Shown here piece after piece: positions 5,213 through 28,111 of a stretch of DNA of 64,000 nt. Origin of the DNA: Candidatus Saccharimonadales bacterium (GTDB taxonomy: Bacteria > Patescibacteriota > Saccharimonadia > Saccharimonadales > UBA4665). Both the position numbers and the translations under genes were made by a program. The notes beneath the pieces are model-generated. The model ran no database searches, was not told the DNA's origin, and was given only the letters and a program-made list of their open reading frames with translations. The DNA is taken from assembly GCA_038230395.1 (NCBI GenBank), contig JBBRNI010000005.1, forward strand, positions 834 to 64,833. Direction: 5' to 3'. Each line of letters opens with the position of its first letter. Position 1 is the stretch's first letter.

Positions 5213-5947
5213 ATGACCAACCCCGATGAACAGCCGAGACCCTTCGCTGTCTTCGACATAGATGGCACAGTTATACGCTGGCAACTCTACCACGCCATCG
5301 TCGACGCTCTCCTGCGCCAGGGTTATATTGATGGCGAACGTTTCGAGGCGGTCCGTATCGCCCGTATGAGTTGGAAACGACGCGTCGGTAGTGATTCATT
5401 TAATGAGTACGAAGCTGAACTCGTCAAAGTCTTCAATGACGCGCTCAAAGGTTTACCAGTGAATATGCTCGAAATGGCCGCTCAAACTGTCTTTGGCGAA
5501 TACAAAGAACAAGTCTATGCCTATACACGCGATCTGATTCACGAACTAAAACAACAGGGTTATCTACTGTTTGTTATCTCTGGTTCGCCCTCGTTAATTG
5601 TCAAGAAACTAGCCGAATATTATGATTTTGATGACTATGCGGCCACTGAATACGTGCAACAGAACGGCTACTTCACAGGCGAAATAGATCAAACTATCGG
5701 CAAGAAGGGCGAATTATTACAGCAGCTCATGACCAAGCACAACCTGGAAACATCAGGTAGTATCGGTATTGGCGATAGTGAAGGTGATATCGCCATGCTA
5801 GAACTGTGCGAACGGCCGATAGCTTTCAACCCGAGCAAGGACTTGTTCAAGCATGCCCAAATTAATAAGTGGGAGATTGTGGTAGAACGCAAAAACGTTA
5901 TCTACAATCTTAGTGCCAAACAAGGGCATTACCATTTAGATAAATAG
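5213..5947 (+). CDS. HAD-superfamily hydrolase (subfamily IB, SerB-like)
   Basis: Motif I FDIDGTV and motif IV GDSEGDIAML, with a cap-domain-sized insertion between them. Confidence 0.8.
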   Translation: MTNPDEQPRPFAVFDIDGTVIRWQLYHAIVDALLRQGYIDGERFEAVRIARMSWKRRVGSDSFNEYEAELVKVFNDALKGLPVNMLEMAAQTVFGEYKEQVYAYTRDLIHELKQQGYLLFVISGSPSLIVKKLAEYYDFDDYAATEYVQQNGYFTGEIDQTIGKKGELLQQLMTKHNLETSGSIGIGDSEGDIAMLELCERPIAFNPSKDLFKHAQINKWEIVVERKNVIYNLSAKQGHYHLDK

Positions 5948-19714: not shown

Positions 19715-21055
19715 ATGGCTATGAAGAACGTCAATCCGGAGGGTAGGCCGGTGGACAGTAAAACTGAAACTGAACCCAAAACAGAAGCTGAGCCAAAAAC
19801 GGCAACTGAACCGGTTTTTCCACAAACTCCCGAAACAAAAACAGATGAGCCAACCGAGTTCAAAACGCCTGATCAGGTGGCAGCCACCGATGATATTGCT
19901 GCTGTTGTGCCCGAAACGACTCCTCCAGCTGAAGCTACTTTGCCCGAGCTAAAAGCTGCCAGTAGTGAAGGCTGGAAAGCGCGCTTCGCTCTACATTGGC
20001 CTCCAGGCAATAAAGAGTATGTTGTCGCGGCCGTCGTGTTAGTACTGCTTGCTGGTATAGGTTCCGCCCTGGCGCTCAGCCACACCTCTAAGCCAGTAGT
20101 CAGCCATGTAGCGAAACATCGTGTCAAAAAACAAAAGCCCGCTCCAGCGCCAACAGTTGTAGCCTCAACACTCAGTGGGCTACCAGTGGCGCCAGCCATA
20201 AATCAACGCCCAGTGACGGCAGTTATGATCGAGAATAGCCTCGATGCTCGACCTCAATCTGGCTTGAGCCAAGCAGGAGTTGTGTTTGAAGCAATTGCCG
20301 AAGGCGGCGTTACCAGGTTTATGGCGCTATACCAAGATACCGCACCGGATAACATCGGTCCGATCCGTAGCGCCCGCCCATATTATGTAAATTGGTCGCT
20401 GGGCTTTGACGCGGGGTATGCTCACGTGGGTGGCAGCCCAGATGGTTTGCAGGCTATCAAAGACTTACATGTGCGGGACTTAGACCAATTCTTCAACAGC
20501 GGAGCTTACCACCGTATTGATACTCGTGATGCACCACATAATGTCTATACTGGGGTTCCGACTCTTACTGATCTCCAAGTCAGCAAGGGCTATACAACGA
20601 GCAATTACAGTGGTTTTGTGCGAAAAGTAGCGGCTCCAAACCCAGCTCCGAATGCCAAAACTGTCGATCTATCCTTGTCAGGGTATTATTACAATCCTCA
20701 CTTCGATTACAACCCAGCTTCCAACAGCTATGGACGCAGCGAAGCCGGTGCTCCCCAAACCGACCAAAACACTGGTCAGCAGCTCTCTCCAAATGTTGTG
20801 ATTGCCATGGTCACACCGCTGGGTCAGGGCGAGCTTGATGATAGTGGAGCTTATTATTCCAATTACACTGTCATAGGTAGTGGTGCGGCCTATGTTTTTC
20901 AAGATGGAGTAGTGACTATAGGCCAGTGGAACAAAGTTAGTCCAACTGCTCAAATAACATTTACTGACGCCGCCGGCAAACCAATTGGACTTAATCCTGG
21001 CCAAACCTGGCTGACTGCCGTGAGCAGCTCAAACGGTATCACCTACGCGCCGTAA
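19715..21055 (+). CDS. DUF3048-like secreted/anchored protein
   Basis: TM anchor after a Pro/Glu/Thr/Lys-rich repeat (TEPKTEAEPKTATEP). The core PVTAVMIENSLDARPQSGLSQAGVVFEAIAEGGVTRF matches my memory of DUF3048. Confidence 0.7.
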   Translation: MAMKNVNPEGRPVDSKTETEPKTEAEPKTATEPVFPQTPETKTDEPTEFKTPDQVAATDDIAAVVPETTPPAEATLPELKAASSEGWKARFALHWPPGNKEYVVAAVVLVLLAGIGSALALSHTSKPVVSHVAKHRVKKQKPAPAPTVVASTLSGLPVAPAINQRPVTAVMIENSLDARPQSGLSQAGVVFEAIAEGGVTRFMALYQDTAPDNIGPIRSARPYYVNWSLGFDAGYAHVGGSPDGLQAIKDLHVRDLDQFFNSGAYHRIDTRDAPHNVYTGVPTLTDLQVSKGYTTSNYSGFVRKVAAPNPAPNAKTVDLSLSGYYYNPHFDYNPASNSYGRSEAGAPQTDQNTGQQLSPNVVIAMVTPLGQGELDDSGAYYSNYTVIGSGAAYVFQDGVVTIGQWNKVSPTAQITFTDAAGKPIGLNPGQTWLTAVSSSNGITYAP

Positions 21056-21057
21056 TT

Positions 21058-22596
21058 ATGGATCAAATACACCAACTTCTTCGCAGTATCCGTCAACATT
21101 TATTGTTAGTGGTATTAGCCGAGAATGCCGCGCTACTAAGCATTTGGGTAATTCTAGAAGACTTTGCTAAATTATCAAATATTTTGACACTACTAATTAG
21201 TTTTTGGCTGATAATTGGTGGCAGTATCCTTATCGCGGCTTTCAGTGGTCGTTACCTTATTCAGCCAATCCAAGCCTTGTGGCAAGCGGTTATGCACCTC
21301 AGCCCCTCGGTACAGGGCGTATCTGCGCCCGACCTCGCTAAAATCACTCTTGGCGCTGGCTTAGTAACTAATCTTATCTCCCAGATTCACCAATTAACTG
21401 ATGTTGCCGAGCAATCTGCCATTGCCGCCCAGAAGGCGATAACAGATATCAGCCACAATTTTGTTGCCCAAAATTTGCCACTACCATTTATTACTCTCGA
21501 CTCGAGCGAAACCATAACTTTCGCTAACGACTCCATGTCGAAATACCTTGGGATTAGCGCTACAGATTTGATCGGCAAAAATATTTATTTCGTCATGGAC
21601 TTGGCGTTCCCGAGTGAAGACACCTTCGATATGTGGCTAAAAGAAGCCAAACTTCACAGTGCCACTGCCACGCGCTCCTGGGAGCGGGTCAAAATGGACG
21701 TCCGTGATAACCACCCACTACGGCTATTTGATTTGGCAGCCTATTATAACCGTGATAACGGCGATCATATCGAGACAATGTTAGTGCTGCTCGACCACAC
21801 CAAAACCTACAGTCAAGATGATCAAGCTATCAGCTTCATTGCCTTATCAGTCCATGAACTTCGTACACCTCTGACATTACTTAGGGGTTATATCGAGGTT
21901 TTCCAAGATGAATTGCAGGGTAAGGTAGAACCTGATCTGCTCGATTTTATGAATAAGATGAGTGCTACTGCGCAGCAACTAATGGCCTTCGTGAACAACA
22001 TTCTCAACGTCGCGCGAGTAGATGATGATCAACTGCAACTAAAACTGCAAGAAGAGCAGTGGGGTGATATCCTCAAGAGTAGCCTCGACACACTAAGTTT
22101 ACGGGCCGGTGTCCGCGGAATTACGCTCGAATACAGCTTGGCTCCTAACTTACCGACCGTCGCGGTGGATCGCCTGAGTATTTATGAAGTGCTGAATAAC
22201 CTCGTTGATAATGCTATTAAATACAGTAACGGTAGTAAGATAATCAAGATCGCCGCCCATCTGGATGCTCAGGGTATGGTCGAGACCACAATTCAGGACT
22301 TCGGTGGAGGCATGCCGGCGAATGTTCTGCCAAACTTATTTACCAAGTTCTATCGTGATCACCGCAATCGTGCTCAAATTGGAGGTACTGGCCTAGGTTT
22401 GTATCTGTCAAAAGCTATTCTCACGGCTCACGGTGGCAATATATGGGTTACCAGTAAAGAGAATGAGGGCAGTACCTTTGGTTTCACACTCGTGCCATAT
22501 GCTCAGCTCGGTACCGAGCTGAAACAGAGTCAAAACCAAGAAATTGTACGAAGTGCTCACGGCTGGATCAAAAACCACTCACTCTATCGTCGATAA
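21058..22596 (+). CDS. Membrane sensor histidine kinase (PAS + HisKA + HATPase_c)
   Basis: H-box SVHELRTPLT, N-box DNAIKYS and G-box GGTGLGLYLSK. There are two N-terminal TM segments. Confidence 0.9.
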   Translation: MDQIHQLLRSIRQHLLLVVLAENAALLSIWVILEDFAKLSNILTLLISFWLIIGGSILIAAFSGRYLIQPIQALWQAVMHLSPSVQGVSAPDLAKITLGAGLVTNLISQIHQLTDVAEQSAIAAQKAITDISHNFVAQNLPLPFITLDSSETITFANDSMSKYLGISATDLIGKNIYFVMDLAFPSEDTFDMWLKEAKLHSATATRSWERVKMDVRDNHPLRLFDLAAYYNRDNGDHIETMLVLLDHTKTYSQDDQAISFIALSVHELRTPLTLLRGYIEVFQDELQGKVEPDLLDFMNKMSATAQQLMAFVNNILNVARVDDDQLQLKLQEEQWGDILKSSLDTLSLRAGVRGITLEYSLAPNLPTVAVDRLSIYEVLNNLVDNAIKYSNGSKIIKIAAHLDAQGMVETTIQDFGGGMPANVLPNLFTKFYRDHRNRAQIGGTGLGLYLSKAILTAHGGNIWVTSKENEGSTFGFTLVPYAQLGTELKQSQNQEIVRSAHGWIKNHSLYRR

Positions 22597-22625
22597 GCGC
22601 TCGTAACATCTGATACAATACTGCT

Positions 22626-23039
22626 ATGGACTCAGAACAAAACCCTCCAGCACAAAATCCTCCAGCTAATGGTCGCACCGTACTGTGTATCGAAGATGAA
22701 CATTTTATTAGTGAATTATACGCCCGTGCCCTGAAAAAGAGCGGCTACCAAGTAACGGTGATTGCTGATGGCCAAGTTGCCCTTAACGAAGCCCAGAAGG
22801 ACATCTACGATATCATCTTGCTGGATCTTATGGTACCAAACTTAACAGGCATAGAAATCTTGCGGGTATTACGTGACCCAGCTCGAGTTCCACCACTCAA
22901 GGCCAAGATTATCATCACAACTAATCTCGAGCAGCGTGAAGATGTTCGAGCTGACATCGAAAACCGAGCTGATGGCTACTTGGTAAAAGCCGAGATGACT
23001 CCCCACGAACTCGTCAGCTTCATCGACACCGTCAAATAG
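22626..23039 (+). CDS. Stand-alone receiver-domain response regulator (no output domain)
   Basis: 137 aa with CheY-like VLCIEDE...ILLDLMVP...IIITTN. Confidence 0.9.
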   Translation: MDSEQNPPAQNPPANGRTVLCIEDEHFISELYARALKKSGYQVTVIADGQVALNEAQKDIYDIILLDLMVPNLTGIEILRVLRDPARVPPLKAKIIITTNLEQREDVRADIENRADGYLVKAEMTPHELVSFIDTVK

Positions 23040-23067
23040 ACTTGGGCATACTGCAGTAAATATCACG

Positions 23068-23095
23068 TTGCATCGAGCGGGCGAGCGGGTATAAT
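23068..23095 (+). promoter_or_regulatory. Candidate sigma70-type promoter (TTGCAT-16 nt-TATAAT)
   Basis: TTGCAT at 23068..23073 and TATAAT at 23090..23095. It would give a ~250-nt leader ahead of the gene at 23353. Confidence 0.3.
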
Positions 23096-23352
23096 AAGCA
23101 CTAGCCACGTTGGGACTTCGAGACATTGCCTTGATTTCCCCTCGGACTATTTACAAGCAACCATACTCCGGTCACTGCGCGCTTTTCTATATTTTTACGT
23201 TTTTAGCTTAACGGTTTTGCCCCTGGAACGGTGGCCCAAAATCTCGCTCAAAACTACTCCAACTAATCCGTTCACTGATCTGTTAATACTCATCAGACCT
23301 CTTTTTATTAATTCTGGTTTTCGCCCCCGGGCAAAACTACAAGGAGCTTTTT

Positions 23353-23652
23353 ATGACTATTTCTCGATACGATGACTTACAAATTCAAGACGAAGTGCAG
23401 ATTACTGCCGTGACCTTTCGATCTAACAGTGAAGTGCCCGGTGACGCCCGGCTAGAGAGCTACCCGCGCCGTATGGTTTACGACGGCCGTGAATATACCT
23501 TTGTCGAATTAGGTATGCGCTACCTCGTCCAAAAAGGCCAAGAGCTCGTCAAGCTGTTTGATGTCAGCGATGGCCAAAGCTTGTTTCGTTTACGCTGCGA
23601 AGCTGACCACTGGACCCTCGTCAACATGAAACCATCGCTGCAGGCAGCCTAA
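23353..23652 (+). CDS. Small protein of unknown family, paralogue A (TLS-module accessory)
   Basis: AAGGAG Shine-Dalgarno 6 nt upstream of the ATG. It shares a P-x-RM..G..E-x-G-x-R..F..SDG..R-x-E-x-D..WTLV-x-M pattern with the ORF at 24070..24342. Confidence 0.6.
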   Translation: MTISRYDDLQIQDEVQITAVTFRSNSEVPGDARLESYPRRMVYDGREYTFVELGMRYLVQKGQELVKLFDVSDGQSLFRLRCEADHWTLVNMKPSLQAA

Positions 23653-23683
23653 TGAAGACCCAAACTAACTCGGAGGAACGACT

Positions 23684-24058
23684 ATGCAATATGATCTTGA
23701 AACTATGGCCTACAGCGACGAATTTTATGGGGACTCCGTCTCCGTTCACGCCGGCTTATCCAATCCAGCGGCTGATCGCCGCAGAGCAGGCGTCCAGCTA
23801 TTGCTCGACCTCAATCAGCACCTAATCAAACGCCCCAGCAGTAGTTTTCTATTTAGAGTAGCTGGGCACCGCTGGGCTTCCCATGGCGTCTTTGATGGTG
23901 ATATCGCCATCATCGACCGAGCGCTAACACCACAGCCCACTGATATGGTCATCATATGGCAGGATAGTGGCTTTAGCTTGAGCGCTCAGAGACAGCTATC
24001 CCTCGAGGATGAGCCACTTGGCGTTGTCACGTCCGTTATTCATCAATACCACCGCTAA
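23684..24058 (+). CDS. UmuD-like S24-fold protein lacking the Ser/Lys catalytic dyad
   Basis: Hand alignment to E. coli UmuD gives VHAGLSNPAAD vs VQCGFPSPAADY, VAGHRWASHGVFDGDIAIID vs [20 protein letters not shown], and FSLSAQ vs FTVKKL. Confidence 0.7.
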   Translation: MQYDLETMAYSDEFYGDSVSVHAGLSNPAADRRRAGVQLLLDLNQHLIKRPSSSFLFRVAGHRWASHGVFDGDIAIIDRALTPQPTDMVIIWQDSGFSLSAQRQLSLEDEPLGVVTSVIHQYHR

Positions 24059-24069
24059 CACCCACCGCT

Positions 24070-24342
24070 ATGGATCCAACAATACAAATCAATGAGCGCG
24101 TCGATATAGTCGCGGTTTACCGTAAACACGGTGACATTGCTTCACTTTGCATGCCCTGCCGGATGCGCTGGCATGGTCAAGATGTTGAGCTCACTGAATT
24201 TGGGCTCCGTCATCCAACGGTCGCCGGCAAGCGAATGATCCACGTATTCCATATGAGCGATGGTACCAACGGCTACCGCATTGAGTTCGATGCTGAGTCA
24301 CTGACTTGGACACTAGTCACCATGATCGCAGGGTCAGCGTGA
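24070..24342 (+). CDS. Small protein of unknown family, paralogue B (TLS-module accessory)
   Basis: 90 aa. Paralogous to 23353..23652, at roughly 30% identity by eye. Confidence 0.6.
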   Translation: MDPTIQINERVDIVAVYRKHGDIASLCMPCRMRWHGQDVELTEFGLRHPTVAGKRMIHVFHMSDGTNGYRIEFDAESLTWTLVTMIAGSA

Positions 24343-25592
24343 ACTACCACCTGAACCGCGAAGAGCCACAAATAATGCACATAGACCTCAACAGCGCCTT
24401 TGCCTCTGCCGAGCAACAAGCTTGGCCAAGTCTTCGTGGTCGGCCAATGGGCGTCACGAACCGCCTATCCAAAGAGTGCTGCGTAATTGCCGCAAGCTAC
24501 GAAGCCAAAGCCCTCGGCATCAAGGTTGGTACTCGTCGCACAGAAGCCATGGCTCTGTGCCCAGACTTTGTCATGCTCGAAACCGACCCCAGTAAATATA
24601 CACACATGTACCAAAATCTGATGCGCATCATGAAAGACTACTCGCCAAATATCAAAATGAAAAGTATTGACGAGGGTATTATAGATTTTCACGGTACCCG
24701 AGAAGTAAACAATCGAACACTGGTAGAGATCGGCTACGAAATCAAGCAGCGCATGTACACCGAAGTTGGCAGTCATATGCGGGTCAATGTTGGCATTGGG
24801 ACGAATCGCTTCTTAGCTAAAACCGCGGCTGGGCTCCACAAGCCAGACGGACTTGATCTGATCGATCACCGTAACCTGATAGATGTCTACAAATCTATGG
24901 AGCTCGAAGACATTACTGGTATTGCCGATGGCTACGGTAGTAGGTTGCGGGCACATAGCATCTATACGCCACTGCAATTCTTAGAGGCGTCAGATGAGCT
25001 GCTGAGGCGTAAGATTTTCAAGAGTATCAACGGGCTGCATTGGTATAACCGCCTCAGAGGCTACGAAGTCGATGACTACCAAACTAATCTCGGGATGGTC
25101 GGTCGGCAATGGGTTGTAAAGAAGCCCTCTAATAATGACTCCTATCTTCGTTCATGTCTCCATTTCTTGGTTGAGACTACCGGTATAAAATTACGCTTTC
25201 GCAACGTCGAAGCGCGTGGCGTCTGTGTTTGGGTGTCATTTGCTGCTGGCGGCGGCTGGTCTGATAAAAAGATGCTGCGTGCAACGTTTTACACCAATCA
25301 AGATATTTGGCTCCATGTCTCGAGGCTGTTTGATCACCGGCCGAAGCATATGGTGGTGCGTACCATGGGGCTATACCTGTATCAGTTAACACCGTCTCAG
25401 CGAAGTCAGATCAGTATGTTCGATGATGTCATCAAGGCAGATTACTTGACCAAAACTATGGACGAGATCAACGACTTCTATGGCTCGTTTACGGTCTACT
25501 CTGCCGATACACTTGTTGGTAAGCAGGAGGTGAAGCAAAAAATACCCTTTGGCGGCACAGAATACTTCGAGCTCCTGCTAAAACGGGCTTAA
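24306..25592 (+). CDS. Y-family DNA polymerase (UmuC/DinB-like)
   Basis: N-terminal IMHIDLNSAFASAEQQ (D-x-N-S-F-x-AS-x-E as in UmuC), followed by palm, finger and little-finger length. The start is uncertain among ATG 24306, GTG 24340 and ATG 24375. Confidence 0.9.
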   Translation: MDTSHHDRRVSVNYHLNREEPQIMHIDLNSAFASAEQQAWPSLRGRPMGVTNRLSKECCVIAASYEAKALGIKVGTRRTEAMALCPDFVMLETDPSKYTHMYQNLMRIMKDYSPNIKMKSIDEGIIDFHGTREVNNRTLVEIGYEIKQRMYTEVGSHMRVNVGIGTNRFLAKTAAGLHKPDGLDLIDHRNLIDVYKSMELEDITGIADGYGSRLRAHSIYTPLQFLEASDELLRRKIFKSINGLHWYNRLRGYEVDDYQTNLGMVGRQWVVKKPSNNDSYLRSCLHFLVETTGIKLRFRNVEARGVCVWVSFAAGGGWSDKKMLRATFYTNQDIWLHVSRLFDHRPKHMVVRTMGLYLYQLTPSQRSQISMFDDVIKADYLTKTMDEINDFYGSFTVYSADTLVGKQEVKQKIPFGGTEYFELLLKRA

Positions 25593-25608
25593 AGTGTAGA
25601 CAACGGCA

Positions 25609-26247
25609 TTGGGATATAAGTATGCTAGACAGATGAAATACCAGCAGTTACTTGGCCAATACCCAATTATTTCAGATCAAATTGGTAAGCCAGCCATGGG
25701 CGTAGTGTTACGTGAGTTAGAATCTGTGTTAGGGCGGGGCATCGCCGGTGACGTCGTGGAACTGGGCTGTTACATCGGCACGACAACGTTATTTATGAGA
25801 CGGCTTATGAACGAGCTGGCCTCAGGCAAACTGCTATACGCATATGATTCGTTCGAGGGGCTACCTGCCAAGCAAGCTAGTGATGCCAGTGGGGTGGGCG
25901 AGCAGTTTCAGAGAGGCGAGCTAAGAGTTACTAAGAAACAATTTATGCGAGAATTTCAGAAAGCTAATTTACAAGCCCCTATAACCCATAAAGCATGGTT
26001 CAAAGATTTACAGCCTGACCAACTACCTCAACAGATAAGTTTTGCTTTTTTGGATGGTGACTTTTACGAGTCGATCATTGACTCACTACGCTTAGTTTGG
26101 CCTCGACTTAGCAAAGGTGGGGTAATAACGATTGATGATTACCAACGAGGCGCACTACCTGGGGTAGAACGCGCAGTCAACGACTTCATTCAGGGTAAAA
26201 TTGTGCGAGTTCACCATGAACATAACATCGCTGTTATTACATGCTAG
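25609..26247 (+). CDS. Class I SAM-dependent methyltransferase, TylF/MycF-like
   Basis: VVELGCYIGTT (SAM motif I) and FAFLDGDFYESI...GGVITIDDY. The track start is TTG 25609, and ATG 25633 is an alternative. Confidence 0.7.
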   Translation: MGYKYARQMKYQQLLGQYPIISDQIGKPAMGVVLRELESVLGRGIAGDVVELGCYIGTTTLFMRRLMNELASGKLLYAYDSFEGLPAKQASDASGVGEQFQRGELRVTKKQFMREFQKANLQAPITHKAWFKDLQPDQLPQQISFAFLDGDFYESIIDSLRLVWPRLSKGGVITIDDYQRGALPGVERAVNDFIQGKIVRVHHEHNIAVITC

Positions 26248-26324
26248 TCTGCCAGCCCACCTGCCATTGAAAGCTATAGCCTCAATTGGGATGGGCATGG
26301 TAATAGGAGTGGTATGATACCCCT

Positions 26325-26902: not shown

Positions 26903-28111
26903 ATGCGTACTATGCAGCAATCTACAGTGTGGCAGAGATCAGCAACTATTATTACTACAGCCGTTACGGCTTTGTTCGGGTTTAGCGGCTTCGCGGCAGC
27001 TGACGCGATTATCACTACGGGTCCGGGTTCAACTAATTCAATTAGCGCCAGCCAGGACAACACGTGTAATGTTTCTAATTCGAACCGACTAAATCTCAAT
27101 TCTTCCAACAGTCAATCAGCTGAGAGCGGTTCCGCTACCGCTGCTGGCAACACCAGCGCTGGTTCAGCAACAACTGGCGAAGCTAGCAACAACAATGCCA
27201 CAAACGCCACAGTAAACGTCGACAATAGCGGGGCATCGCTAGCTTGTGTTTGTGAAGCCGCTCCGGCACCAGTCGCGGCTAATAACACCATTAGCAACAC
27301 TGGCCCACAATCTCATAACAGTATCAGTACCTCGTCCGAAACAACTACGAATGTTACGAATTCCAATACGGTTAATATCAGCAATAACACCAATAGTGAA
27401 AATGAGGGTAGCAACCAGAATGCCACGACAGGCGACGCAGTAGTCACTGACAATACCTCCGGCGGTTCGGCCAGTACTGGTGATGCTAGTAATAGCAACC
27501 AAAGCGACTTTGTAGTCAACCTCGTAAATGGCGCCGACGCAGGCATAGCAGCAGCAGTCAACAACAACTTTAACGATGCCTGCGCTACAAACACAGCACC
27601 AACCGTATCTAATAACTTCGGTGGCCTGGGTGGCGGTTCATTAACTCCTTCATCAGCACCACTAGTTACTAGTGCACTATTTCGCCCCAGCTCTCCACGA
27701 TCCACAGGATCAGGATACGGTGGTGGAAGTAGTCGCTATTACGCAACACCCGTGATAAGCCGCTCTTCGGCCCCAGCTCCACAAGTTACTAACTGCCCGC
27801 CTGCAGCAGTCACACCTGTCAGTAGCCAGCAATCCAGTGCCCCGGTAACAGCTGTCGCCCGCACAGCCCCAGCACCAGTCACAAGCACAATTAGTAACAC
27901 TGGCCCAGGCTCAGATAACAGTATCAGTAACAACAATTCAAGCTCAACAACAGTCAGCAACACTAACAATGTCTCAGTCTCCAACAACAATAATCAAAGT
28001 TCCAGCACTGGTTCAGCAGTAGTCACCGACAACACCACTGGCGGTTCAGCAACGACAGGAACTGCTAGCAACTATGACGCAGCTATCAGCAACACCTACG
28101 TCAGTAATTAG
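26903..28111 (+). CDS. Secreted Asn/Ser/Thr-rich protein with three ~70-75-aa modules
   Basis: Signal peptide ends ..FSGFAAADA. Modules start at about 27008, 27287 and 27887. Each begins I-[ST]-[NT]-TGP-[GQ]-S-x-NSIS and ends ..GDA/GSAVVTDNT-x-GGSA-[ST]-TG-x-ASN. Confidence 0.7.
   Translation: MRTMQQSTVWQRSATIITTAVTALFGFSGFAAADAIITTGPGSTNSISASQDNTCNVSNSNRLNLNSSNSQSAESGSATAAGNTSAGSATTGEASNNNATNATVNVDNSGASLACVCEAAPAPVAANNTISNTGPQSHNSISTSSETTTNVTNSNTVNISNNTNSENEGSNQNATTGDAVVTDNTSGGSASTGDASNSNQSDFVVNLVNGADAGIAAAVNNNFNDACATNTAPTVSNNFGGLGGGSLTPSSAPLVTSALFRPSSPRSTGSGYGGGSSRYYATPVISRSSAPAPQVTNCPPAAVTPVSSQQSSAPVTAVARTAPAPVTSTISNTGPGSDNSISNNNSSSTTVSNTNNVSVSNNNNQSSSTGSAVVTDNTTGGSATTGTASNYDAAISNTYVSN

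Follow-up and report, generated by a model that had tools for sequence, protein, structure and literature searches.

A probable mutasome-type operon in a Saccharibacteria genome, with two ImuB-C-like paralogues, a UmuD-like protein lacking the Ser/Lys dyad and a DinB-like polymerase

The 64-kb window analysed here (the whole stretch of 64,000 nucleotides, from a Candidatus Saccharimonadales bacterium) carries four genes in close succession on one strand, which encode a small all-beta protein (A), a UmuD-like protein (D), a second small protein (B) and a Y-family DNA polymerase, and which appear to form one operon. The locus is assembled from known kinds of parts: ImuB-C-like proteins, a UmuD-like protein and a Y-family polymerase with clamp-binding and RecA-N-terminus-like motifs. 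What is unusual is the loss of the UmuD catalytic dyad throughout a family, the pair of ImuB-C-like paralogues with different roles, the interchangeable catalytic cassettes and, with no obvious LexA site, a conserved RNA leader instead. The genes are laid out as follows.

23353-23652, + strand: gene A, 99 amino acids, a standalone ImuB-C-like (DUF6504-related) all-beta protein
23684-24058, + strand: gene D, 124 amino acids, a UmuD-like protein of the S24 fold without the Ser/Lys dyad
24070-24342, + strand: gene B, 90 amino acids, a second ImuB-C-like protein, of a different orthologous group from A
24375-25592, + strand: Y-family DNA polymerase Pol2a, 405 amino acids, DinB/Pol IV-like

The tight packing described in an earlier, sequence-only reading of this DNA is borne out by the listing of open reading frames (ORFs), with gaps of 31 nucleotides (nt) between A and D, 11 nt between D and B and 32 nt between B and the polymerase. 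The polymerase frame is open from a TTG at 24306, overlapping B, and the conserved start MHIDLNS corresponds to the ATG at 24375, 32 nt past the B stop. Gene A has an AGGAG ribosome-binding site (23342-23346), and base composition is even over the region. Most homologues of the four proteins carry no source name; those that are named come nearly all from Candidatus Saccharibacteria, Saccharimonadales or Patescibacteria.

D had been read as UmuD-like, and it matches the NCBIfam UmuD model at 7e-14 and the PHROG UmuD-like family at 1.6e-15, scoring 22.5 bits on Pfam Peptidase_S24, just under the cut-off of 23.3. A profile of the D family finds E. coli UmuD (8gmt_B) at 1.4e-19 and LexA at about 1e-5, and Foldseek returns 8gmt_A, 1ay9 and 1umu at probability 1.0 with template-modelling (TM) scores of 0.56-0.71. 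The predicted core overlays on UmuD and UmuD' with TM scores of 0.6-0.7 and a root-mean-square deviation of 2.5 Å; in the model, the core (residues 50-120) has a predicted local distance difference test score (pLDDT) above 88, and the N-terminal arm (residues 1-40) is disordered. This arm bears a cleavage-site-like motif, VHA-GLSNPAAD, in which A23-G24 aligns with C24-G25 of UmuD, so that the Ala-Gly reported at the position of the scissile bond is indeed there. The reported replacement of both dyad residues holds as well, UmuD S60 corresponding to R63 (GDSM to GHRW) and K97 to S100 (FTVKKL to FSLSAQ). Moreover, it extends to the family: in an alignment of 100 homologues with E. coli UmuD, counted over 101 members, the dyad is absent from all 101. 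No member has Lys in the K97 column (S 46, C 16, T 13, H 12, others), and the residue in the S60 column varies (H 23, E 22, A 11, T 10, others), with Ser in five. The hidden Markov model (HMM) alignment to 8gmt_B agrees on the dyad columns. It also shows that the roughly 20 residues thought to be missing from the C terminus are missing from the interior, where UmuD residues ~101-125 are replaced by six residues, a loss of ~19. D is therefore shortened by an internal deletion and not by a C-terminal truncation, and its C-terminal strand is retained (PLGVVTSVIH against DVFGVVIHVV in UmuD).

Given that the general-base Lys is found in none of the 101 members and that the nucleophile column is variable, the proposal of a UmuD-like subunit unable to cleave itself has gained support, and the loss of the dyad predicts that RecA-stimulated self-cleavage of D is absent. 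The sequence around the position of the scissile bond is conserved: 98 of the 101 members have Gly at P1', P1 is Ala (35), Ser (30) or Thr (26) in 91, and the arm shows hardly any departure from the motif H-[AST]-G-F-P-N-P-A. This small P1 residue and its nearly invariant surroundings could mean that D is activated by proteolysis in trans, the [A/S/T]-G bond being cut by a LexA-type S24 protease or an unrelated one, and E. coli UmuD does cleave intermolecularly. We give this idea very little credence and regard it as highly improbable. Ser and Thr at P1 are atypical of LexA and UmuD sites, the locus encodes no candidate protease, and some D proteins (L018, L032 and L042; handles of this form denote the loci compared) start only 7-10 residues before the Gly, which would leave little for cleavage to remove. 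The motif is equally well explained by an arm that lies in the polymerase cleft, as has been modelled for UmuD' and YqjX (PMC12926913). By analogy with those models, D would fit a subunit that is permanently UmuD'-like and whose arm binds the polymerase.

An ORF in an alternative frame overlies the start of D (23652-23825, + strand; 57 codons). It begins at a TAATG overlap with the A stop and encodes LCNMILKLWPTAT, and its motif LCxxIxKLWPTAT recurs in the same frame at many loci. It was rejected as a gene: where Leu codons change synonymously in the D frame, this frame reads L, Y or W, and we judge it to be a by-product of the conserved D N terminus. Comparable short ORFs in L025, L035 and L012 are best interpreted as remnants of the 5' end of D.

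A and B had been taken for paralogues on an identity of about 30% judged by eye, and BLASTP supports this with 33% identity over 86 residues (E=4e-14). The further statement that they match no recognisable family stands for direct searches, which find no match for either in Pfam, NCBIfam or PHROG, and fails for profile methods, which link both to ImuB-C/DUF6504. Rather than an unknown family, A and B appear to be standalone, divergent versions of the small ImuB-C/DUF6504-type beta proteins, which have been described before at the side of DinB, UmuC and DnaE2 (PMC3765255, PMC12926913); the homology is remote but supported. A relationship to YolD had been named as a possible outcome; the known family found is ImuB-C/DUF6504, and YolD (PF08863) has no match at E<=1 in A, B, D or the polymerase and none at E<=0.01 among 120 members of the A/B family. 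The family itself is well populated. A has 221 homologues, all of ~90 residues, the best 120 listed being 56-99% identical to A and much closer to A than to B; B has 387, mostly 60-80% identical. An exhaustive search of a library of 1.8 billion proteins with the A profile gave 188 clusters, all of them single-domain proteins of ~80-120 residues. Across 120 diverse members of the A/B family, no residues but P38 and W87 (A numbering) are invariant, and within the A group Arg is nearly invariant at positions 56, 79 and 81.

According to an earlier description, ImuB-C is a small domain rich in beta-strands, in which a C-terminal Trp and basic residues are conserved; it is located at the C terminus of ImuB and also stands alone beside DinB, UmuC/YolD or DnaE2 (PMC3765255). 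The A/B proteins, of 80-100 residues, mostly beta and with a conserved C-terminal Trp, fit that description. The AlphaFold model of A is all-beta, with eight strands and no helix (pLDDT 82, predicted TM score 0.73). It has no significant fold match in PDB or BFVD, libraries that contain no ImuB-C structure, and the A/B family profile finds nothing among PDB sequences. The lack of a PDB relative agrees with the modelling of ImuB-C as a beta-barrel without PDB relatives (PMC12926913), which is consistent with a shared fold and no proof of one.

The link to ImuB-C runs through DUF6504 (PF20114), a recurrent weak Pfam match among A/B family members. Among 40 members tested singly, one, P0358, passes the PF20114 gathering score (25.9 bits against 24.2), and for most of ten further members DUF6504 is the top or sole Pfam match at sub-threshold level (E 0.003-0.13). 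P0358 belongs with the proteins of the window, matching the A profile at E=7e-6 and window B by BLASTP at E=8e-12. DUF6504 can be equated with standalone ImuB-C because Deide_1p01890 of D. deserti, named 'imuB-C' in PMC8072749, carries the annotation 'DUF6504 family protein' and reaches 30 bits with PF20114; it sits between a Y-family gene and dnaE2. A direct profile comparison points the same way: with hhalign, 30 B-like sequences match five Deinococcus ImuB-C proteins at a probability of 79% (P=1.5e-5, score 31.1). By comparison, 200 column-shuffled templates gave a mean score of 10.1 and a maximum of 18.7 (z ~10 over shuffles), the reversed template gave 8.2, and the accepted pairing of DUF6504 with four proteobacterial ImuB C-termini, taken from plasmids via tblastn with DnaE, scores 26.4. 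A tblastn search of plasmids with a B-like protein found nothing, and the neighbourhood of a Streptomyces plasmid dnaE held no ImuB-C.

The polymerase matches Pfam IMS (PF00817) over the whole domain at 2.1e-33 and IMS_C (PF11799) at 2.3e-5. Its best NCBIfam matches are Pol IV models, at 172.8 bits against a cut-off of 399, and as no Pol IV equivalog cut-off is reached, the enzyme belongs to a distinct subgroup. It had been called UmuC-like, which the profiles contradict: the UmuC model NF002955 gives 83.6 bits (cut-off 431), below nine Pol IV models, there is no match to DUF4113 (PF13438), and the enzyme is 21% identical to the true UmuC-like polymerases that sister genomes encode. One of these, from L003, scores 334.5 bits over the full length of NF002955, still below the cut-off of 431, and has DUF4113 in the precomputed Pfam listing. 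On its profile matches, then, the window polymerase is a DinB-like Y-family enzyme. Inspection finds the motifs HIDLNSAF...E and SIDEG, which we take to be the Asp and Asp-Glu motifs of DinB; with the catalytic acidic residues kept, the enzyme looks active. Towards its C terminus lie a clamp-binding-like motif, QISMF (25407-25421), and a RecA-N-terminus-like (RecA-NT-like) motif, YLTKTMDEINDFYGSFTVYSA (25443-25505), located in the C-terminal alignment and compared with the N terminus of E. coli RecA; the motif is as defined in PMC6511836. A QxxLF-type clamp motif and a RecA-NT-like motif are carried by all three groups of polymerase found at such loci:

Pol1: true UmuC subfamily (NF002955, 9e-100), 21% identical to the window polymerase, with the tail SPRYTTxWxELP
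Pol2a: DinB-like, 60-81% identical within the group; the window, L010 (62% to the window) and L025 (81% to the window)
Pol2b: DinB-like, 38% identical to the window polymerase; L021, L022, L026, L028, L035 and L039

The arrangement of these parts was compared at 40 loci from one scan of species-representative Saccharibacteria genomes, whose ORFs were scored with A, D and polymerase profiles. The following architectures were found:

A-D-Pol1 (UmuC-like): 23 of 40 loci
A-B-Pol2 (DinB-like): 7 of 40 loci
A-D-B-Pol2a: 1 of 40 loci (L010), besides the clade of the window
A alone: 8 of 40 loci
A-D, with the contig ending after D: 1 of 40 loci

A is the invariable first gene in every version, and a Y-family polymerase lies in the same operon at 31 of the 40 loci. 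B stands directly upstream of Pol2 and never of Pol1 (nine of nine genome loci, and in addition L059 and L181-L183), and by its placement is a dedicated partner of the DinB-like polymerase. A and B are accordingly not the local duplication they had been taken for; they are old paralogues with different partners, A heading every version of the locus and B appearing only directly upstream of a DinB-like polymerase. The homologue searches and the genome loci thus bear out the expectation of conserved small proteins with a link to Y-family polymerases. The opposite prospect, that they occur independently of polymerases, applies in part to A, which has no adjacent polymerase at the eight A-alone loci, and not to B, which is polymerase-adjacent in every case seen.

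An independent instance of the B-polymerase pair occurs in L059 (2334-3753), outside the clade of the window, where the B-like protein P0393 overlaps by 23 nt the start of a 392-residue IMS/IMS_C polymerase. The C terminus of P0393, 'W.LEEV.D', is close to that of classical DUF6504 proteins, and two HhH-GPD glycosylase genes adjoin the pair.

Close relatives reveal how the DinB-like pair is placed. The window and L057 (~85% nucleotide identity) are homologous over 20162-24050 and again from 25633, and between these points, from the end of D to a TylF-type methyltransferase gene, L057 has a umuC-like gene with DUF4113 (L057 3868-5192) in place of B and Pol2a. This comparison defines one further feature:

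24051-25632: exchangeable cassette, B with the DinB-like polymerase

The breakpoints are clean, among genomes 85-92% identical; in close relatives, umuC and the B-DinB-like pair have taken each other's place in the interval that separates D from the following gene. The four-gene order of the window recurs in L181-L183, which represent 22 contigs, and L182 aligns with the window as one collinear block (23055-26255, 84.5% nucleotide identity). By its A-D sequence, L182 is nearer to L057 than to the window, and the more distant L058, L005 and L006 carry umuC; the cassette has therefore been exchanged at least twice. In the four-gene form all four genes are under purifying selection. Ratios of nonsynonymous to synonymous change (dN/dS; Nei-Gojobori, window against L181/L182) are 0.05 for A, 0.05 for B, 0.03 for Pol2a and 0.03-0.06 for flanking genes. 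For D the ratio is 0.07 (dS 0.74; 14 nonsynonymous and 40 synonymous changes against L181), as low as that of its neighbours. This ratio, over a collinear operon, indicates that D is kept by selection.

Upstream of A lies a conserved structured element, with a further hairpin between it and the ribosome-binding site:

23222-23312, + strand: conserved structured leader of ~90 nt upstream of A, comprising helix P1, a loop, a hairpin and a U-run
23226-23231 (GAACGG) pairing with 23268-23273 (CCGTTC): leader helix P1
23275-23296, followed by a U-run at 23300-23311: leader hairpin
23316-23337, + strand: GC-rich hairpin (GGTTTTCGCCCC/GGGCAAAAC) just upstream of the A ribosome-binding site, read from the sequence

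The leader precedes A in L001-L042, L069, L075, L104, L126, L127, L128 and L140. It aligns in 36 loci, with invariant ACGGT and CCGTT cores, a conserved AGCUCC-like sequence in the loop and an outermost P1 pair that covaries (GC 20, AU 8, GU 6). A hairpin of at least 5 base pairs follows P1 immediately in 37 of 37 leaders tested (mean z -2.9 against shuffles), its stems having 17 different sequences with the structure kept. The leader has no Rfam match, even at E<=10. A pattern scan of metagenomes gave 120 matches, of which 113 are chance ones in unrelated contigs and the other seven all precede an A gene; a scan of this kind is no proof that other genes lack the leader. Hairpins analogous to that at 23316-23337 occupy the same place in L003, L007, L009, L012, L016, L018 and L020, and on the strength of these roughly seven loci it could belong to an expression platform. 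No Gram-positive-type LexA box (GAAC-N4-GTTC) occurs within 400 nt upstream of A at 38 loci, and the window has a single perfect site (33892), which falls within an ORF. We regard the leader as a candidate operon attenuator, riboswitch-like leader or small RNA.

On balance, the locus is likely to be a modular translesion-synthesis operon of the mutasome type in a Saccharibacteria bacterium. The identities of its parts are well supported; the manner of their assembly and activation we infer, and we tentatively propose the following mechanism. The clamp motif would bring the polymerase to stalled forks, where RecA could activate or modulate it through the RecA-NT-like motif, as has been proposed for PolY-RecA complexes. 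B, and probably A too, may serve as non-catalytic adaptors that bind the polymerase, RecA or damaged DNA in the manner of ImuB-C. D would act as a constitutive UmuD'-like subunit, its H-[AST]-G-F-P-N-P-A arm binding the polymerase with no need of RecA-stimulated cleavage, and the module may be controlled at the level of expression, by the leader/terminator element, in place of proteolytic maturation. An activation logic that differs from the classical one is plausible, with a D that is predicted to be non-cleavable, no LexA-type box found and a conserved RNA leader. A bolder version goes further and supposes a fully non-SOS logic, in which the UmuD-type subunit is born active, A is the universal organiser of interchangeable cassettes and the on/off decision has moved to a hitherto undescribed, damage-sensing RNA leader (attenuator or riboswitch); this we consider quite unlikely.

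Several observations weigh against the proposed translesion-synthesis operon. The first concern the small proteins, for neither A nor B itself reaches a Pfam or NCBIfam threshold. In the hhalign match to Deinococcus ImuB-C the confidently aligned stretch is the N-terminal half only (31 columns), and B-like sequences compared directly with the four proteobacterial ImuB C-termini gave an hhalign probability of 2.7% and an HMM result that was also not significant, so that the link of A and B to ImuB itself is transitive. The gene for RecA, on which the mechanism draws, was not found within the 64-kb window. The leader may be no more than a terminator belonging to the two-component operon upstream. 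Further difficulties concern the place of D and of A in the operon, and each of these is best considered together with a rival explanation.

D is missing from all seven A-B-Pol2 loci, and in L012, an A-alone locus with no B or polymerase after A, it is a pseudogene with an in-frame stop (~5289-5400, MRDDL*TMADS...); in some lineages it would therefore seem dispensable for the DinB-like enzyme. The gaps between A and B in L025 (5235-5420) and L035 (5238-5405) contain what by eye are candidate decayed 5' fragments of D, for which tblastn is not significant. In the window itself, D departs from the family at two near-invariant arm positions (F25L and P26S, each at least 90% conserved) and has nine private substitutions against two in L057, compared with 20 against 22 in flanking genes (binomial p=0.03, Fisher p=0.086). 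The D arm of L010, the only other distant four-gene locus, is degenerate (RRFSDAAFD). Together with the pairing of D with Pol1 at 23 of the 40 loci, these observations could be explained if D in the window genome were a relic, left behind by a umuC that the B-DinB-like cassette replaced and now on its way to being lost, with A, B and the polymerase as the working unit. We think this unlikely, though worth serious thought. The D ORF is intact and has a good ribosome-binding site, and in L181 and L182, which also have the DinB-like cassette, the arm is canonical (GFPNPAAD), so that F25L/P26S is a trait of the window genome and not of the four-gene arrangement. The collinearity of the operon with L181/L182 at 84.5% identity and the low dN/dS of D, like that of its neighbours, have demoted the idea of a decaying relic of a recent swap.

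The persistence of A, with its leader intact, in 8 of the 40 genomes without a downstream D or polymerase raises a different doubt, namely that the role of A may not be tied to this polymerase. At two of the A-alone loci, L019 and L024, the methyltransferase genes usually found behind the polymerase come straight after A. The surroundings are otherwise conserved, with genes for glutamyl-tRNA synthetase (GluRS), a DUF3048 protein, a histidine kinase and a REC-only regulator upstream of A and for TylF-type and SPOUT methyltransferases downstream. A, perhaps with the leader, might accordingly be a stress or signalling protein tied to the upstream kinase/regulator pair or to general damage sensing, and the polymerases frequent passengers. 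Divergent A copies in L043 and L044 adjoin other regulators, the HisKA kinase and the regulator precede A at nearly all loci, and standalone ImuB-C proteins have been found beside non-polymerase repair genes, with sensing of damaged DNA proposed as their role (PMC3765255). We nonetheless find such a role improbable and give it little weight: a Y-family polymerase shares the operon with A at 31 of the 40 loci, gaps of 11-34 nt indicate that A is co-transcribed with it, and A is related by homology to B as well as to DUF6504/ImuB-C, which is known from contexts of mutagenic polymerases.

Two features of the neighbourhood are recorded in their own right. Immediately upstream of the leader and A in the window (21058-23039, + strand), as in nearly every locus, stand a PAS/HisKA histidine kinase of 512 amino acids and a REC-only response regulator of 137 amino acids, and a functional tie of this pair to the operon is possible. 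Further downstream (26903-28111, + strand), a Ser/Asn/Thr-rich ORF of 402 amino acids has an N-terminal hydrophobic segment and repeats of the form 'ISNTGP.S.NSIS...N.TN.N.V..SN'; its product is probably a repeat protein that is secreted or located at the surface.

The locus adds to the known multi-subunit error-prone polymerases of bacteria. Surveys of these enzymes from 2019 (PMC6511836) and 2026 (PMC12926913) make no mention of Saccharibacteria, Patescibacteria or the candidate phyla radiation (CPR). A natural, family-wide UmuD that would lack self-cleavage while keeping an almost invariant arm motif bears on what the UmuD' arm does in the polymerase. The exchange of catalytic cassettes (umuC for imuB-C with a dinB-like gene) behind a constant A-D platform takes place between close relatives, and two paralogues with different partner specificity in one operon offer a convenient means of finding the binding targets of ImuB-C, a domain that is still poorly understood. 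In a phylum whose regulation is almost unexplored, the conserved element upstream of A may represent a new cis-regulatory RNA. If D were indeed born active, A an organiser and the leader an RNA switch, the mutagenic polymerases of Saccharibacteria would run outside the classical SOS paradigm.

The nearest known systems are the operons of standalone ImuB-C (DUF6504) with DinB/PolY described by Aravind, Anand & Iyer in 2013 (PMC3765255) and as 'PolY associated with ImuB-C and RecA' (PMC12926913). There, as here, an all-beta protein of 80-100 residues with a C-terminal Trp lies immediately upstream of, or overlapping, a Y-family polymerase with a RecA-NT-like motif, and judged on gene order and family assignment the pair of B and Pol2a (and likewise that of L059) is exactly the 'ImuB-C + DinB' layout already described. 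The Saccharibacteria operon differs in several respects. Its small proteins are too divergent for the Pfam model, which one of 40 passes; it has two paralogous ImuB-C-like genes with a UmuD-like gene between them; A is independent of the type of polymerase and is kept even without one; and the operon here contains no lexA or SRAP gene.

The similarity to E. coli Pol V (UmuD'2C-RecA-ATP) resides in D, with its UmuD fold and an N-terminal arm bearing a G-F-P-x-P-A-A-D motif, and in the partner polymerase, which in 23 of the 40 relatives belongs to the UmuC subfamily proper (NF002955, 9e-100) and has the clamp and RecA-NT motifs as well as the SPRYTTxWxELP tail. Unlike Pol V, however, the D family has no Ser/Lys dyad and carries the internal deletion of ~19 residues, an ImuB-C-like gene always precedes umuD, and the catalytic subunit in the window is DinB-like. 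The Deinococcus operon, which served as the reference for the profile comparison, also places a standalone ImuB-C/DUF6504 protein beside a Y-family homologue in a damage-response setting. Its Y-family member is predicted to be inactive and to serve DnaE2, whereas the polymerase here looks active and no dnaE2 is present, and its operon is headed by LexA, that of the window by the structured leader.

A further parallel is offered by the putative YqjW-YqjX and UvrX-YolD mutasomes of B. subtilis (PMC6511836, PMC12926913), in which a non-proteolytic, arm-bearing small subunit replaces UmuD' beside a polymerase with a RecA-NT motif; ImuB-C has also been reported together with YolD and UmuC-like genes (PMC3765255). 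In contrast to YqjX/YolD, D is a true UmuD homologue with no match to PF08863. A precedent for a UmuD-type subunit without a self-cleavage step is HumD of phage P1, a naturally 'pre-cleaved' UmuD' homologue that has no N-terminal pro-segment. The NCBIfam model NF051876, listed with HumD, matches D at 3.9e-5. Where HumD dispenses with the pro-segment, D of the window still has 23 residues ahead of the Gly; what it has lost are the catalytic residues.

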